Below the pieces are notes generated by a model that saw only the letters and a program-made list of their open reading frames with translations, made no database searches and was not told where the DNA came from. From contig JBKHIT010000010.1 of assembly GCA_046538485.1 (NCBI GenBank), positions 32,001 through 96,000 on the forward strand: DNA of 64,000 nucleotides, given 5' to 3'. Shown here in pieces: positions 1 through 47,014 of this stretch (within the stretch, counting starts at the first letter, position 1; every line of letters begins with the position of its first letter). The DNA is from Candidatus Brocadiia bacterium. GTDB lineage: Bacteria > Planctomycetota > Brocadiia > SM23-32. The position numbers and the translations under genes are program-made.

Positions 1-39
1 CCGGATAAGCACCTTCACTCCGTTCTCGGTTCCGTCCAT
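1..39 (-). CDS. 5' end of a gene running off the left edge (MDGTENGVKVLIR...), product unknown
   Basis: ATG at 39 with strong SD TGGAGG just upstream on the minus strand; open to the window edge; co-oriented with coaC. Confidence 0.45.
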   Translation of the reverse strand, partial: MDGTENGVKVLIR

Positions 40-24988: not shown

Positions 24989-25317
24989 GCGGATTTGTAA
25001 GCGGGCCGGAAACCCGCGAGCGGACTGGACTTCAGCCGGAGGCTGGAGTTCAGAACGCGGTCCAGAAACCTGTGAACCCCGCAGCACAAAGACCAACAAC
25101 GAACGGCAGGTCCGCCTCGGCGATGCGGACCGACAGCTACCTGGCATTTTCCGGCATCTGTCCGCCTCAAGTCCAGTTTCGCCCGCCGGGGCGGGCTCAG
25201 CTGAACTCGAGTCTGCAGGATACGCGGTCGAGAAGCGGGGTTGCAAGCTTACAGAATGATTGAGACCAGACATAAGTTTATGTTACAACAACCTTTAACG
25301 ACTTTTCCGAAGGAAAC
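24989..25317 (+). repeat. Dispersed repeat family A, long copy (~330 bp)
   Basis: Colinear with the reverse complement of 42300-42606, from CCCGCGAGCGGACTGG to GACTTTTCCGAAGGAAAC. Confidence 0.85.
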
Positions 25318-40765: not shown

Positions 40766-40866
40766 AAGCGGGACTTGAATCGGACAAAGCAAAAATGCTT
40801 GAAAGTTCCAAGGAACTCGGCCGCGTTCTGAACTCCAGCCTCCGGCTGAAGTCCAGTTTGCTCCGG
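40766..40866 (-). repeat. Dispersed repeat family A, short copy
   Basis: Reverse complement ACTGGACTTCAGCCGGAGGCTGGAGTTCAGAACGCGG...AGTTC.TTGGAA.TTTCAAGC matches the 22 kb and 25 kb copies. Confidence 0.75.
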
Positions 40867-40946: not shown

Positions 40947-41960
40947 TTAGAGCGATCGCCCGAGCGCCTCGGCAACTCCACGCAGTTCGCACATCAGTTT
41001 TCCGAATCCGTCCAGTGTGAGCGACTGGCCTCCATCGACAAGAGCCTGTTCGGGGTTTGGATGGGTTTCCACCAGTAGGCCATCGGCTCCAGCGGCGATT
41101 CCAGCGCGCGCCAGCGCGGCCACCAGACTGCGTTGCCCGGCTGAATGGCTGGGATCCACGATAACGGGCAAATGCGTCGCCTGTTTAAGGTATGCAAGAG
41201 CTCCGATCGACAGTGTGTAGCGGGTCTGCTGCTCGAAAGTTCGGATACCGCGGAGACACAGAATGACCTCGGCGTTACCGTTTTTCAAAACATATTCGGC
41301 GGCAAGCAGAAGTTCATCCACCGTGGCGCTGATCCCCCGTTTCAGCAGAACGGGTTTATCGGTCTTACCGACTTCCTCCAGCAGGACATAATTCTGCATG
41401 TTCCGGGCCCCGATCTGGAGCACATCCGCGCATTCAGCCACTTCTTCCACATCGCGGGGCGCCAGCACCTCGGTCACCACAGGCAACCCCGTTTCTTCCC
41501 GCACGCTTGAGAGTATTTCCAGTCCTTTTCCCTGCAATCCCTGGAAGCTGTACGGGCTTGTGCGGGGTTTGTAGGCTCCCCCTCGGAGCGCCACGGCCCC
41601 GGCAGCTTTCACGCTTCGCGCCGCCTGCATCATCTGTTCCTCACTCTCCACAGCGCACGGGCCAGCAATTACCGCGATACGGTTCCCGCCGACCACCTGC
41701 CCGTCGATGTGCACACGCGTGGCGTGATCGGAGATTTCCTGACTGGCCAATTTGTAGCGAGACAGAATCGGCACAATGCGTTCCACTCCCGGCGTCGCCA
41801 GCCAGTAATCTTCGGGGATCTCACGTTTATCACCAATAGCTGCTATGACATTCCGTTTTTCTCCCCGCAGGAGAATGGCTTCCAATCCTTTTTCTTCCAC
41901 ACGGTCGATCGCATGGTGGATTTTATCTTCGTCCGCGTTCTGTTCCATGACAATTATCAT
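40947..41960 (-). CDS. aroF: DAHP synthase type I-beta with N-terminal ACT-like regulatory domain
   Basis: MIIVM.. ACT-like N-terminus, IAGPCAVES, RGGAYKPRTSPYSFQG, QIGARNMQN, LLKRG, DPSHSAG. Confidence 0.93.
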   Translation of the reverse strand: MIIVMEQNADEDKIHHAIDRVEEKGLEAILLRGEKRNVIAAIGDKREIPEDYWLATPGVERIVPILSRYKLASQEISDHATRVHIDGQVVGGNRIAVIAGPCAVESEEQMMQAARSVKAAGAVALRGGAYKPRTSPYSFQGLQGKGLEILSSVREETGLPVVTEVLAPRDVEEVAECADVLQIGARNMQNYVLLEEVGKTDKPVLLKRGISATVDELLLAAEYVLKNGNAEVILCLRGIRTFEQQTRYTLSIGALAYLKQATHLPVIVDPSHSAGQRSLVAALARAGIAAGADGLLVETHPNPEQALVDGGQSLTLDGFGKLMCELRGVAEALGRSL

Positions 41961-42025
41961 TTTCTGTCTCTCCTTACTTCGCTCTTCCTGAGCGCCCGGT
42001 GTACCAACCGGCTTTGAATTGCAAC

Positions 42026-42057
42026 AAAAAAACCCCGAAGCCAGCTGACTTCGGGGT
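42026..42057 (-). terminator. Intrinsic terminator (attenuator) upstream of aroF
   Basis: Minus strand ACCCCGAAGTCA-GC-TGGCTTCGGGGT followed by a U-tract; lies between leader peptide and aroF start. Confidence 0.88.
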
Positions 42058-42092
42058 AATAAATTGAAATCTCTCGTCAGGCTAATTACGGT

Positions 42093-42218
42093 TTACCCGC
42101 CGGCCAGCCTCCTTCCCTGAGGGGCAAAATAAAAATACCAAAACGCAAAGTATCGGCCCGCACGTACGGACTCACCGTACGCAACACTTTCAGGGGCGAT
42201 TTCTCTGTGTTCTGGCAT
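42093..42218 (-). CDS. aroF attenuator leader peptide, 41 aa: MPEHREIAPESVAYGESVRAGRYFAFWYFYFAPQGRRLAGG
   Basis: Hand-translated; SD GAGAGG 6 nt before ATG 42218; 8 of 9 consecutive codons aromatic; stop TAA at 42095-42093. Confidence 0.85.
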   Translation of the reverse strand: MPEHREIAPESVAYGESVRAGRYFAFWYFYFAPQGRRLAGG

Positions 42219-42253
42219 ACAATACCTCTCAATCAGAAGACCAACCACTTTCA

Positions 42254-42282
42254 ATCCTAGCGAAAGAAACGTCGTTTGTCAA
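42254..42282 (-). promoter_or_regulatory. sigma70 promoter of the leader-aroF unit
   Basis: TTGACA (42282-42277), 17 nt spacer, TAGGAT (42259-42254). Confidence 0.75.
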
Positions 42283-42299: not shown

Positions 42300-42606
42300 G
42301 TTTCCTTCGGAAAAGTCTTTTAAAGGCTGTCGTAATATAAACATCATGTTTAGTATCAATCATTCTGTAAACTTGCAACCGTGTTTATCGACCGCGTATC
42401 CTGCAGACTCGAGTTCAGCTGACCACGCACCAGCGGGCGAAACGGGACTTAAAGTGGGTAAATGCCGGAAAATGCCAGGTGGCTGTAGGCCCGCATCGCC
42501 GAGGTGGACCTGCCGTTCGTTGTTGGTCTTTTTTCTGCGAGGCCTGCGGGCTTTTGCGCCGCGTTCTGAACTCCAGCCTCCGACTGAAGTCCAGTCCGCT
42601 CGCGGG
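42300..42606 (-). repeat. Dispersed repeat family A, long copy
   Basis: Reverse complement colinear with ~25013-25317. Confidence 0.85.
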
Positions 42607-42907: not shown

Positions 42908-45900
42908 ATGGGACGTCTGCTCTCGTGCCGAAGGCTGTGGACGTATTTCATTCTGTCTTGCTGTCTGTTTCCCTTCAGCCTCTCTTGCGCCGCCCGACCG
43001 ACCGAGTTTACGGCTCGGCCCCAAGCTACGCTCGCAAAACTGCCGATGGCTCCCGAACAAACCAGGGCTGCATGGTCCGTCACGGGCAAGCTTGCGCCGG
43101 GGGAAGATGATATCCTCGGTAGTAAAACTTACGATGTGCTGGCCAGAGCTCGACTCGCGCTGCGTTCGGTTCAGGACTTTTCCGGCGCCTACACAGTGGA
43201 AGCTCTGGTGCGTTTCCCGGCAGCCTCGGGAAGACGTGGCCGCTCGGGGAACGCAAAACTCCGATGCGGAGTTACCCGGGAAGGTAAAAAAGTATCTTGG
43301 GACTGCCAGCTGTTTACCGCATGTGTAGGAAGGGCCGGATTTCGCGCCTCGGCACAGCTCAAACCGCACATCTTCAGTTCTCTGAATAACGGCTTACCCC
43401 ATCCGTTCAGAAGAAACGTGACCGCGCGTGAACGTTTCTCCGCAGATAAAATCTCCCCCGTCTGGCGCGAGCCGTTTCGCATCGAAGTGGAAAACGGCAT
43501 GGCGGCGCTTCCGCCCGCAAAGGAACTGTGGCGCCGCATGCGCATCGAGATCCGCCCGGGCGCCGTACGATTTTTTCTCGACGGTTTTCTCGTTGCGGCC
43601 TGTGATGATACGGGAGACGTGAAAGGCAAAGTTGATCTCATCGTGACCGGCGAGGCGCGCGTAGCATCCATCGAGGTCCAGAAACTCGAACAGGAAGAAG
43701 AACCGTTCATCCCCGTGCCCCTCGACTCAGTTTGCAACGCCACCGGCCCGGTGGATCTCGCATCGCTGCCGAGCGCCGGACAGGTGGCCGTGGCAGAGGG
43801 GATTCCGTTTGTCTTCCCACATAAAATGTCGCGCGGCGACCATGTTGACGTCGGCCAGAGCCTGTTTCGCTATCGCATGGAACGCGGCTACCGGCCGGCA
43901 GCTCAGCCCCGCTCAACCTGGCCGGATCCCGCCCGGCTCGACCCCGCCAGGATCATGCTCCGCGTGCCGAACAAAACCTACAGGCGCCTGTGGATCGTCG
44001 CCGCGTCCGACGGAGAACCAAACAGCACGCCCGTGCTGACCGTCCGGTTCTTCCGGGTCGCCAGGGGGTGGGGATTAGATTCGGTCGCGCGCGTCCCGGA
44101 ATTCACCGCCCGCACAGCAGCGGAGGACGCGCGCCGCATTCCCGTCAAAATGAAGGACGGCACCGAAGGAAACCTGTGGCTGCTACCCGTAGAAATCGAC
44201 CCTTTCGCGCTGTCATCCGATTTTCGCAACGAGAAGCTTCTGCACATCGAGCTGACGAAAGAAATTAAGGACTTCCGCGCGTTTCCGGATCCGTGTAACT
44301 ACGGCTCCTTCCAGGCCGGCTTGCCGAGCGCCGTGCGCGTTTATGCGCTGACTCTCGAGAAAGCTCCGATCTCCGTCATTGCCTCCTGCCCCCGCGCGGG
44401 AAATACCTACACCCATCCGGAGCGGCCGAAATGGGCCGTGACGGCCACCAACCAGACAGACCGCGCATGCACTGCGAATATCCAGGTTAAAATACGGGGT
44501 CCGCAAACCGCGGGACAAAACTTCGAAAAATCGGATACCGACCACACACGGCGGACAACGCTTTCCATACCGGCCGGTGGACGGACACGCGCGGAATTTG
44601 ACCTGCCCGTCCCCGCGTGGGGGCTCCAAAGGATCTCGACATCCGTCAGTTGCGCTGACTTGACTCAGACCCGCGAGGGCACTTACCTTGTTCTGCCGCC
44701 GGACGAACGTAAGGAAAACGCCAAAACCAGCCGCTGGGGACTCTGGTGCTGGATGGGGGCCCACGGCACCAACCCAAATGTGGACGATAACCTCCGACTT
44801 CTTTACCAGCTCGGGGCCCGTACGGGGGGCCGGGGTAACCACAAAGACCGCAAACGATGGGGAATTGGTCCAGATGCCATCCTCGCCCAACGCGGCACTG
44901 CTTCTTTTGCCACTGAGAACCCACACGACCCTGAGGAATATAAAAAATACAGTGAGACGTTCGGCCAGAAGGTCGCCGGGCTCAAGGAAAAGACCCCCGA
45001 CCTCGAATATATCAGCATCTTCGCCGAGCACAGCATCTCGCTGCGGGTGACCCACGGACCGCCATGCTACGCCTGGGGGGAGGAAGAATGGTGGGAATAC
45101 AACGAGAAGGAAAAGGCGCGTATCCGAAGCCACACCCTCGCCGCGAAAGCCGCCTTCGAAGGCGTCCGTAAATACGCCCCAAAGGTAAAGGTGTGTTTCG
45201 GCCACTGTGCACCGCAATTTGGAATACCTTTTATGCGCAAGAATTTCCCGAAAGAACTGTTCGATGCCTTCGGGATGGACAGCCCACAATTCGAGCGTAT
45301 GCCGGAGCGCCCACCACGGGCCGTCGAGCCCAATCTGTTGTACTTCATGGACCAGGAAATGAAGAACTGGGGCTACGAAGGCAAAGAACGGGTGCACCTG
45401 GAATCGTATTTTCCGTCCAGCCACCGGCTGGCGCTTGGACATCGCGTGGCAGCGGACCACATCGTGCGCACAGCGGTCCTATCGCTGGCGCTGGGCAGCG
45501 ACCGCTTTCTTAGCTGCTGGTCGCTGCACGACTGCGAGGACTACTGGGGCACCCAGCATTACGGGTGTGTCGGGCTGATCGGGCGTGGGCCTGAGTTCAA
45601 CCCGAAACCAGGCGCCGCAGCATTCGCCACGATGACGCAGTTGCTCGACTCATGCCAGTACGATGGCTGGCTGCCGACCGGCTCACGCTCGGTTTACTGC
45701 GTGCGTTTTAAAGGGCCGAAACGCCGTGTCTACTGTCTGTGGACGGTGCGTGGAAGACGGAGCATAACTCTGGATGCAACGCCGGAAACCGAGCTGACAG
45801 TTCTTGATGAGAACAGCAATGAGATTCCAGATCCCCCCGTGTTAACCCCCACACCGGTATGGATTATCGCAAGGGGAGGCAAAATCAAAAGCGCCCGGGT

Positions 45901-47014
45901 GAACCCGGCAGGAAAAGCAGGGGGAACTCCCGCTTCCAGCGAAAAATCATCTCCGCACCGGATACCGCTTGAAAATTTTGAGAACTTCCACTGGACCTCC
46001 AGCTCCAAACCCTACCCGCGCTTTGCAGAGAACCACTGGGATGTGCGTCGATATTCCGCCACAATGGATTCGGAGACGGTCATCTCCAGCCAGCGTGATG
46101 GCTCGAAAGTCTGGCGCCTGACGCTAAACGAGGCGCCCAAAAAGAAGCCCTTCGTCGGCTGGTACCAGGTCTTCACCCCGCCGAAACCAATCCTCATCCC
46201 CGGCAGGGCAGAGGCTCTTGGTATATGGGCAAACGGCAACTCGGGCTGGGGACGGATCGTCTATGAAGTGGTCGATGCAAAGGGCGAAACTTACCTGAGC
46301 TGCGGCACAAAGGATGCATGGAACTGCGACGACGTGCATTCCTGGTCGTATTTCAATTTCGACGGCTGGCGCTACATGGAATTCCCGCTCCCCTCGAACG
46401 AGCCCGGCGATAACTACCGCGATGCAGATTACGTGTGGTGGGGACATGATGGCGAAGGAATCGTTGACCTGCCGCTGAAATTATCCAAAATCATCATCGA
46501 AATGCCCACGCACCAGATCTACGTCGATCAGGTGCTGCCGGTTGACAATCTGAAAATTGAGTTGGACGACCTGATTGCCGTGTATGGTAGCGCGAAGATG
46601 ATGACCGAGGCACCCATTAAGATTCAGCGGGCAGCTGCCAGAACTCAAAAAATTGAAGCGCGAGGCACGATCCTGTCCAACCCGCTCGAAGATCTGAAAA
46701 AGAATGGCATCGGCAACCCCACAAAAATCGTAAAACTCTACCCGCCCGAGGAACGACACGATGGAACGCGCGTCCACGTGTCCATTGAACCCGTTGGTGG
46801 CGCGAAACAATACCAGGTATGGGTCTCAGCCTATCCGGACGGACGCGGCGCACAGATACTGGCGCGCACGAAAGACACCGAGCCGCTTGTCAGACGCCTG
46901 CGCCCAAGCGTGCCGTTCTATTTCTTCGTGACTTACAAGGATGCCGACGGCAAAACCTCGAAACCTTCACCCGCACGGAAGACTGTGCTCAAAGACGAAT
47001 TCCCCATGAAATAG
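42908..47014 (+). CDS. Giant secreted hypothetical protein (1368 aa), possibly carbohydrate-active
   Basis: Signal-peptide-like N-terminus; Trp/Tyr-rich beta domains; central segment ending YG..GL.......PKP...AFATMT..L reminiscent of clan GH-A barrel ends; no firm family. Confidence 0.65.
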   Translation: MGRLLSCRRLWTYFILSCCLFPFSLSCAARPTEFTARPQATLAKLPMAPEQTRAAWSVTGKLAPGEDDILGSKTYDVLARARLALRSVQDFSGAYTVEALVRFPAASGRRGRSGNAKLRCGVTREGKKVSWDCQLFTACVGRAGFRASAQLKPHIFSSLNNGLPHPFRRNVTARERFSADKISPVWREPFRIEVENGMAALPPAKELWRRMRIEIRPGAVRFFLDGFLVAACDDTGDVKGKVDLIVTGEARVASIEVQKLEQEEEPFIPVPLDSVCNATGPVDLASLPSAGQVAVAEGIPFVFPHKMSRGDHVDVGQSLFRYRMERGYRPAAQPRSTWPDPARLDPARIMLRVPNKTYRRLWIVAASDGEPNSTPVLTVRFFRVARGWGLDSVARVPEFTARTAAEDARRIPVKMKDGTEGNLWLLPVEIDPFALSSDFRNEKLLHIELTKEIKDFRAFPDPCNYGSFQAGLPSAVRVYALTLEKAPISVIASCPRAGNTYTHPERPKWAVTATNQTDRACTANIQVKIRGPQTAGQNFEKSDTDHTRRTTLSIPAGGRTRAEFDLPVPAWGLQRISTSVSCADLTQTREGTYLVLPPDERKENAKTSRWGLWCWMGAHGTNPNVDDNLRLLYQLGARTGGRGNHKDRKRWGIGPDAILAQRGTASFATENPHDPEEYKKYSETFGQKVAGLKEKTPDLEYISIFAEHSISLRVTHGPPCYAWGEEEWWEYNEKEKARIRSHTLAAKAAFEGVRKYAPKVKVCFGHCAPQFGIPFMRKNFPKELFDAFGMDSPQFERMPERPPRAVEPNLLYFMDQEMKNWGYEGKERVHLESYFPSSHRLALGHRVAADHIVRTAVLSLALGSDRFLSCWSLHDCEDYWGTQHYGCVGLIGRGPEFNPKPGAAAFATMTQLLDSCQYDGWLPTGSRSVYCVRFKGPKRRVYCLWTVRGRRSITLDATPETELTVLDENSNEIPDPPVLTPTPVWIIARGGKIKSARVNPAGKAGGTPASSEKSSPHRIPLENFENFHWTSSSKPYPRFAENHWDVRRYSATMDSETVISSQRDGSKVWRLTLNEAPKKKPFVGWYQVFTPPKPILIPGRAEALGIWANGNSGWGRIVYEVVDAKGETYLSCGTKDAWNCDDVHSWSYFNFDGWRYMEFPLPSNEPGDNYRDADYVWWGHDGEGIVDLPLKLSKIIIEMPTHQIYVDQVLPVDNLKIELDDLIAVYGSAKMMTEAPIKIQRAAARTQKIEARGTILSNPLEDLKKNGIGNPTKIVKLYPPEERHDGTRVHVSIEPVGGAKQYQVWVSAYPDGRGAQILARTKDTEPLVRRLRPSVPFYFFVTYKDADGKTSKPSPARKTVLKDEFPMK

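Follow-up and report, generated by a model that had tools for sequence, protein, structure and literature searches.

3-Deoxy-D-arabino-heptulosonate 7-phosphate (DAHP) synthase is the entry step shared by the pathways to Phe, Tyr and Trp. In a Candidatus Brocadiia bacterium (Planctomycetota), aroF, the gene for this enzyme, is preceded by a candidate ribosome-mediated transcription attenuator with a run of aromatic codons in its leader peptide. The locus lies in 64,000 nt of contig JBKHIT010000010.1 (positions 32,001 to 96,000), and this whole analysed stretch is hereafter called the window.

Among described systems, the aroR leader of Corynebacterium glutamicum (Actinomycetota) likewise places aromatic control codons, Phe-Tyr-Phe, before the DAHP synthase gene aroF, and stalling in aroR raises transcription (Mentz et al. 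2013, PMC4046766; this and the other papers are cited from excerpts). The aroR leader is reported to answer Phe and not Tyr (Neshat et al. 2014 as summarised in PMC11802643). The leader in the window differs in having eight aromatic codons including Trp and in preceding a type I-beta enzyme, the two systems being compared by description. The Acholeplasma aroF element uORFC-13-1 is a predicted upstream open reading frame (uORF) before an intrinsic terminator; it shares with the present leader the combination of uORF and terminator upstream of 3-deoxy-7-phosphoheptulonate synthase, is described as having at least one Phe codon, with 24 members drawn from Acholeplasma and environmental DNA, and is also likened by description (Brewer et al. 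2021, PMC8632094). Attenuators have been predicted before aroF-type genes in Shewanella (PMC2659441) and in Vibrio and Thermus (PMC1173090). The trpL and pheL leaders of Escherichia coli share with the aroF leader the control codons, the set of protector, antiterminator and terminator, and the footprint geometry (PMC4615214, PMC3082878). However, they are short, sense one amino acid each and have a local protector hairpin, whereas a rod extends from the transcript 5′ end here. An untranslated E. coli trp leader also terminates (PMC4615214).

Leader genes of Planctomycetes are counted in PMC4833913; the excerpts cited name no aroF leader, although its tables may list such frames. The main text of PMC2965389 does not contain DAHP, aroF or Planctomyc. 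A full-text search, mostly at the level of titles and abstracts and with subscription journals outside its scope, found no paper on a Planctomycetota aroF attenuator, a Phe+Tyr+Trp leader or a rod of the kind described below. The basic mechanism is textbook, and multivalent leaders such as thrL and ilv exist; what appears to be new here, as judged from sequence, is the multivalent aromatic run, the phylum, for which no description was found, and a family-specific whole-leader protector. An initial reading of the locus from the sequence alone (the sequence-only reading) knew of no such leader in a lineage resembling the Planctomycetes-Verrucomicrobia-Chlamydiae group. That holds for aroF leaders of Planctomycetota in the literature searched, but a trp leader peptide has been predicted in Chlamydia (PMC3937554). 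If the interpretation is correct, classical leader-peptide attenuation would extend to Planctomycetota, whose gene control is poorly charted.

Parts and conservation of the aroF leader

The sequence-only reading had proposed a promoter, a Shine-Dalgarno (SD) sequence, a 41-codon leader ORF encoding YFAFWYFYF, a hairpin with a U-tract and then aroF. All of these were found where that reading had put them. Coordinates of the leader and of aroF are window positions on the minus strand, obtained by direct reading and scans (Table 1). Promoter-like sites number 3 in the 1.5 kb scanned versus 0.5 +/- 0.7 in shuffled sequence, and transcription is predicted from the promoter to start near 42247. The terminator is separated from the aroF ATG by 71 nt.

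Table 1. Features of the aroF locus in the window
Feature	Positions	Strand	Details
Sigma-70-type promoter	42254..42282	-	TTGACA (42282-42277), 17 nt, TAGGAT (42259-42254); scan
5′ pyrimidine block of the transcript	42235..42247	-	Putative anti-antiterminator in the untranslated rod; pairs with antiterminator arm 42113-42101
Leader SD	42225..42230	-	GAGAGG, 6 nt 5′ of ATG 42218
Leader ORF	42093..42218	-	41 codons, MPEHREIAPESVAYGESVRAGRYFAFWYFYFAPQGRRLAGG*
Control codons	42126..42152	-	Codons 23-31, Y-F-A-F-W-Y-F-Y-F (4 Phe, 3 Tyr, 1 Trp)
Whole-leader rod (candidate protector)	42100..42247	-	Folding and covariation
Antiterminator 5′ arm	42093..42109	-	42109-42103 and 42098-42093, stop codon included; partner 42059-42043
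Competing-hairpin segment	42079..42085	-	Pairs with 42110-42104
Intrinsic terminator	42026..42057	-	11-pair stem 42057-42032 (-19.8 kcal/mol), U7 tract to 42026
aroF SD	41970..41975	-	AAGGAG, outside the terminator
aroF	40947..41960	-	Type I-beta DAHP synthase

The conserved run, frame, SD-led start, promoter and spacing, together with a covarying terminator and antiterminator, indicate that the element is very probably a conserved ribosome-mediated (leader-peptide) transcription attenuator on aroF. Sensing of Phe and Tyr is predicted from the codons with high confidence; for the copy in the window, sensing of Trp is favoured only slightly over its absence.

Conservation was assessed with a detector that required, in the 450 nt before aroF, a start codon, at least 4 aromatic codons in 9 and a U-tract hairpin 30-110 nt past the run. 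Three groups of loci were scored: orthologues in the same family; 57 loci from other families of the class, covering 57 of 85 genomes with a match, selected by rank and for breadth of sampling; and the best 80 named relatives, 49 of them labelled Planctomycetota, of which 77 were scored and 3 lacked upstream DNA. The relatives in all counts are kin and not independent. Leader and terminator precede aroF at 17 of the 20 family loci (the window counted in), at 29/57 class loci and at 36/77 named loci, the last comprising 31/48 Planctomycetota and 5/29 others. One named locus, L077 (Photobacterium, with a Trp-run leader), was removed from later counts, leaving 35 named leaders. Of the family exceptions, L014 has run and terminator on a contig that starts inside the leader, and L005 and L112, from one genus, have neither. 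A few more named leaders (L033, L058, L102) were missed by the detector thresholds, and L055, labelled Kuenenia, is without a leader. Among the named loci with a leader is L046, the cultured Roseimaritima sediminicola. The check on upstream regions of aroF orthologues suggested by the sequence-only reading thus showed the short ORF to be conserved in relatives, and terminator and antiterminator covary (see below). A model of the leader, R1, finds it at E<1e-18 in 19/31 family genomes.

The layout is conserved along with the run. The promoter form TTGAC-16..18-xAxxxT stands before 16/17 family and 27/29 class leaders. An SD-led start was located in 13 family leaders, and the first such start is in the aromatic frame in 12/17, the wrong promoter having been taken in two; in 16/16 family leaders the start lies 28-34 codons from the last control codon. 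The control run is kept with synonymous and F/Y/W exchanges, while leader codons 5′ of it vary freely. Family control runs contain TTY 61 times and TTR never, TAY 38 times, and TGG 9 times with no TGY; named runs contain TGG 50 times and TGY once, all of these counts being inflated since runs were delimited by aromatic codons. As read from these alignments, selection is on the amino acids of the run. Phe codons occur in every leader and Tyr codons in all except two; Phe, Tyr and Trp are found together in 9/17 family, 10/29 class and 31/35 named leaders.

As a chance expectation within the genome, 1098 U-tract hairpins were collected and 1093 scored for short ORFs whose aromatic run lies 30-110 nt before the hairpin. 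At least 4 aromatic codons in 9 were found in 42 cases, at least 5 in 6 and at least 6 in 2; the aroF leader, with 8 of 9, is the genome maximum. It is also the longest aromatic run of the family.

Several related arrangements were seen among the loci. Outside Planctomycetota, an aromatic leader with a terminator precedes aroF in L092 (Calditrichota), L097 (Gemmatimonadaceae) and the unclassified L063 and L078. In Solirubrobacterales (L090, L093, L107), short leaders ending in an aromatic run plus WRFS precede aroF with no U-tract terminator. Two of 82 leaders (L018 and L019, from genomes G032 and G029) carry a second aromatic uORF with its own SD, MFGFGYYSFWRWARRGGMKS in L018, in the 92 nt between terminator and aroF; its stop overlaps the aroF start, and its position makes an additional layer of translational control possible. 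In several planctomycetes, a structured element with its own terminator is conserved upstream of aroF: it is seen in L038, L052 and L104, where it had no Rfam match at gathering score, and lies further upstream in L033, L059 and L072.

Terminator, antiterminator and whole-leader rod

In alignments of 18 family sequences, 99% of terminator cells are paired, with two-sided changes in 5/12 pairs. The corresponding figures for 27 of the 35 named leaders are 88% and 8/12, the other 8 having been left out of this alignment (A3) by eye as divergent. The pairing of the leader 3′ end with the terminator 5′ arm, proposed by the sequence-only reading, was borne out: 7+6 pairs form in the window, with a duplex energy of -17.7 (p 0.015 versus 200 shuffles). 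The antiterminator is paired in 85% of cells in the 27 named sequences, with two-sided changes in 6/10 pairs (21 cells; 0/500 shuffles), and in 94% of cells in the 18 family sequences, with two-sided changes in 3/12 pairs (14/500 shuffles). In the window, the inner antiterminator pair is U-A where 16/18 sequences have C-G, a two-sided change that keeps the pairing. Both arms differ in sequence from group to group. Median duplex energies with the own partner are -23.7 (family), -14.4 (class) and -23.8 (named), versus -10.8 and -16.6 for family arms paired with the partners of the other groups.

The spacing fits a ribosome-controlled switch. The arm had been placed about 15 nt past the last aromatic codon, and its first base is found 16-17 nt past the last Phe codon; it covers +17 to +33 past the last control codon, with the stop codon ending at +33 (family medians +15 and +24). 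A stalled ribosome is thus predicted to leave the arm uncovered, and one at the stop codon to cover it. A leader was counted as showing the switch pattern if its terminator arm is captured when a ribosome occupies the last control codon and free when the ribosome is at the stop. It was found in 8/17 family, 25/29 class and 30/35 named leaders versus 22/169 strong genomic hairpins. In these folds, a ribosome stalled on the Trp codon leaves the same arm free as one on Phe or Tyr. Folding was at equilibrium, with folding kinetics and ribosome bulk outside the model.

In addition, the leader as a whole folds into a rod that runs from the predicted start site to the antiterminator arm (-65.0 kcal/mol, z -6.05, 0/200 shuffles). 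Apart from the outer helix listed in Table 1, the rod pairs the leader SD with 42126-42117, at and just past the last control codon, and sets the start-codon region opposite the control run, with the Trp codon within the inner helix. Family rods are 141-165 nt long, counted from the transcript 5′ end. A z of -2 or lower was obtained for 15/16 family leaders (median -4.2) versus 1/27 class and 2/7 named leaders. Likewise, a duplex between the 5′ untranslated region (UTR) and downstream sequence reaches p<=0.05 in 13/16 family, 3/23 class and 0/6 named leaders, and in each of the 16 family folds 6-10 bases of the SD region pair with positions at or 3′ of the control codons. The inner helix, predicted by RNAalifold unguided, is 91% paired, with two-sided change in 5/8 pairs (0/500 shuffles). 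The outer and SD helices, taken by columns, are 82.8% paired, with two-sided change in 4/13 pairs (10/500 shuffles), and their registers slip in runs. The folding points to a protector in an unusual form, a rod restricted to this family, and the rod probably acts as one. The ribosome-binding site of the trp leader is likewise reported to pair with a distal segment (Das et al. 1983). The two-structure switch of the sequence-only reading therefore stands in that both of its structures covary, but it was incomplete, as a third conserved structure spans the leader.

Folding with no ribosome, when begun at the start codon, hinted at readthrough as the default; this was wrong for the window, where capture of the terminator arm falls from 0.35 to 0.11 once the 5′ UTR is included. 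The family median is 0.56, with values below 0.3 in only 2/16. Thus, default termination is predicted for the copy in the window and is uncertain for the family.

Proposed mechanism and alternatives

On the established logic of attenuation (PMC4615214), the following course of translation, folding, termination and amino-acid response is proposed. RNA polymerase would start near 42247, and a ribosome would load on the leader SD while the 3′ half of the leader is still to be transcribed, and trail the polymerase. With ample charged tRNA-Phe and tRNA-Tyr, and here tRNA-Trp, the ribosome would reach the stop codon and cover the arm, the terminator would form, and a product of about 220 nt lacking aroF would be released. 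When aromatic aminoacyl-tRNA is short, the ribosome would stall on the run and prevent the rod from closing in its middle; the antiterminator arm, 17 nt further on, would remain free to pair with the terminator 5′ arm, allowing readthrough into aroF. Once the ribosome is gone, or if none has loaded, the rod would close, locking the antiterminator arm and hiding the SD and start codon, so that termination would be the default and the leader would be read about once. A wider picture, rated below even odds, is that one switch integrates the charging of all three aromatic tRNAs at the pathway entry while the branch genes lack an attenuator, that such leaders are the rule across Planctomycetota, that the family rod makes the switch single-use and default-off, and that a leuA attenuator may share the scaffold.

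Several observations weigh against this interpretation. Leaders were undetectable at 28/57 class loci, some of which keep a terminator. The antiterminator duplex reaches p<=0.05 in only 12/17 family, 14/29 class and 22/35 named leaders, and the A/U-rich class arms do better with their own partner than with only 36% of foreign partners. The family of the window is the group with the lowest share of switch patterns. RNAalifold predicted the inner helix of the rod only, and not the outer or SD helices. In the window itself, the local hairpin 42110-42104/42085-42079 (-18.9) beats the antiterminator (-16.6) by 2.3 kcal/mol. The terminator arm is captured with a probability of 0.31-0.35 when the ribosome sits on a control codon, whichever one it is, versus 0.11 when it is at the stop. 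If the 5′ end is added to the model, the 5′-end helix persists in the stalled folds of lowest energy, or the local hairpin does if another ribosome occupies the SD. Given this hairpin and these capture values, equilibrium folding yields an approximately threefold bias in the window rather than a clean switch. Folding of the two conformers, suggested at the outset, gave the switch pattern in many relatives but, at equilibrium, an antiterminator outcompeted by the local hairpin in the window. A TAGCCT block resembling the 42079-42085 segment is found in most family leaders. Lastly, the structures were derived from the same sequences in which they were later counted, and the Trp codon is missing from 8/17 family leaders.

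The last point bears on which amino acids are sensed. The same attenuator could respond to Phe only, or to Phe and Tyr, with the Trp codon structural or neutral; the probability of this is considerable, if below even. Where the Trp codon is missing (8/17 family and 19/29 class leaders) it is replaced by Phe or Arg at the same place, in the window it sits in the inner helix of the rod, and the C. glutamicum aroR leader is insensitive to its Tyr codon (PMC11802643). However, Trp codons are present in 33/35 named leaders, which are mostly without a rod, and the excess of TGG over TGY in these runs, as well as the release of the same arm by a stall on Trp, favours sensing. Additionally, neither a terminator nor an aromatic leader was found in the 450 nt before trpE, pheA, tyrA and pheS of the genome. 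The tri-aromatic sensor of the sequence-only reading thus fits the copy in the window and most named leaders, but extends to little more than half of the family leaders (9/17) and to 10/29 class leaders. The locus opens the question whether one leader adds three amino-acid signals, and why codons can be present yet unsensed; relatives that have or lack the Trp codon or the rod, and those bearing a second aromatic uORF, offer a natural test series.

It is unlikely that the leader is conserved while the switch itself has decayed or been damped in this organism, leaving a near-constitutive terminator and aroF expressed by leak. Such a state would agree with the antiterminator of the window not being the lowest-energy fold, and with degenerate cases in the class: at L116, L117, L139, L145, L153 and L159 the aroF terminator is present with few or no aromatic codons, the leader being weak or absent and some 5′ regions very short, for which decay or another control is possible. 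Yet the copy in the window combines the longest run of the family with an intact promoter, SD and frame, the U-A for C-G change preserves its inner antiterminator pair, and aroF encodes the only DAHP synthase found.

TnaC is a nascent-chain arrest peptide, and the functional product here might similarly be an arrest peptide that senses a free aromatic metabolite or, with the ORF secondary, a released trans-acting small RNA. This is improbable, and slightly more so than decay of the switch. The residues 5′ of the run, which would form the exit-tunnel stretch, are not conserved, the run stands only a few codons past the start in other families, and the leader peptide has no Pfam family. The leader is long for an attenuator, its run ending 28-34 codons from the start, and a released RNA would form a stable rod, both of which lend the idea some appeal; trans roles are also reported for the Sinorhizobium trp attenuator RNA and peptide. 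A trans role would be an addition to attenuation and not an alternative to it.

An ORF arising by chance next to an ordinary terminator, or a leader that binds a protein or tRNA (TRAP, T-box, riboswitch), is very improbable: U-rich DNA easily reads as Phe and Tyr, and the detector gave 42 genomic matches, but amino acids rather than bases are conserved, frame, spacing and covariation speak against chance, Rfam release 15 gave no match at gathering score in the window and 20 related loci, and no T-box was found in the genome, TRAP not having been searched for. At E<=10, Rfam gave sub-threshold hairpin matches only (L10_leader, trpB and others), far under their cut-offs.

AroF, its genome context and the leuA leader

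A stand-alone, ACT-type I-beta aroF had been proposed, and the annotation agrees. AroF matches PRK08673 with 470 bits (cut-off 335) and TIGR01361 with 378.7 (267.75), and the N-terminal ferredoxin-like (ACT-like) domain PF18152 covers residues 1-66. The gene after aroF is convergent, thus aroF stands alone. AroF also matches PDB entries 1RZM, 1VR6 and 3PG9 over its full length, the N-terminal ferredoxin-like domain included. These entries represent the Thermotoga maritima-type I-beta DAHP synthase, an enzyme with Tyr/Phe allostery; the likeness concerns the regulated enzyme only and not the leader.

AroF is the single DAHP synthase found in the 88%-complete genome. A second match to it has 34% identity and is without the N-terminal part, and a family search of the genome gave no match to class II or I-alpha DAHP synthases. 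A further DAHP synthase-like paralogue with some 50% identity is common in genomes of the family (loci L028-L031 and L163-L182) and was not found in the source genome; leader plus terminator precede this paralogue at 0/23 loci (1 skipped). Frames of 809-826 codons with a hydrazine synthase alpha domain occur, one or two each, in three genomes from two other families of the class and not in the source genome. The domain was rejected as an anammox marker, with 17 copies in genome G032. The source organism is probably a non-anammox bacterium of the planctomycete class to which the anammox bacteria belong.

A Leu-rich leader, MRNEQTQSRLWLLNLWLTSLWLSRPKRGR, with promoter, antiterminator (-25.1) and terminator, is found in the source genome at approximately 54900-55070 of contig C51 (G000:C51, minus strand; L188, L191), 201 nt before leuA. 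Similar leuA leaders are present at 15/23 family loci, with 3/26 lacking upstream DNA, and most have conserved Trp codons. This type of control is thus apparently used more than once in the lineage. The model built from aroF leaders gives weak matches (E 8e-6 to 4e-3) to three leuA leaders, and the leuA attenuator may share this scaffold and differ in its control codons. Two further weak matches of the model (G009:C13 and G013:C274) were discarded as ordinary end-of-gene hairpins. An operon of leuA and trpE under the Leu/Trp leader may be considered, with some 700 nt and other short frames between the two genes.

In the window, an ORF of 1368 aa (42908-47014), without a match in an NCBIfam search, is divergent from aroF. 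The aroF unit lies between two copies of a 36-nt palindromic repeat (42561-42596 and 40823-40857), and a further copy is at 25023-25058. This repeat resembles repetitive extragenic palindromic elements, with 119 of 127 BLAST matches in the genome at least 28 nt long.

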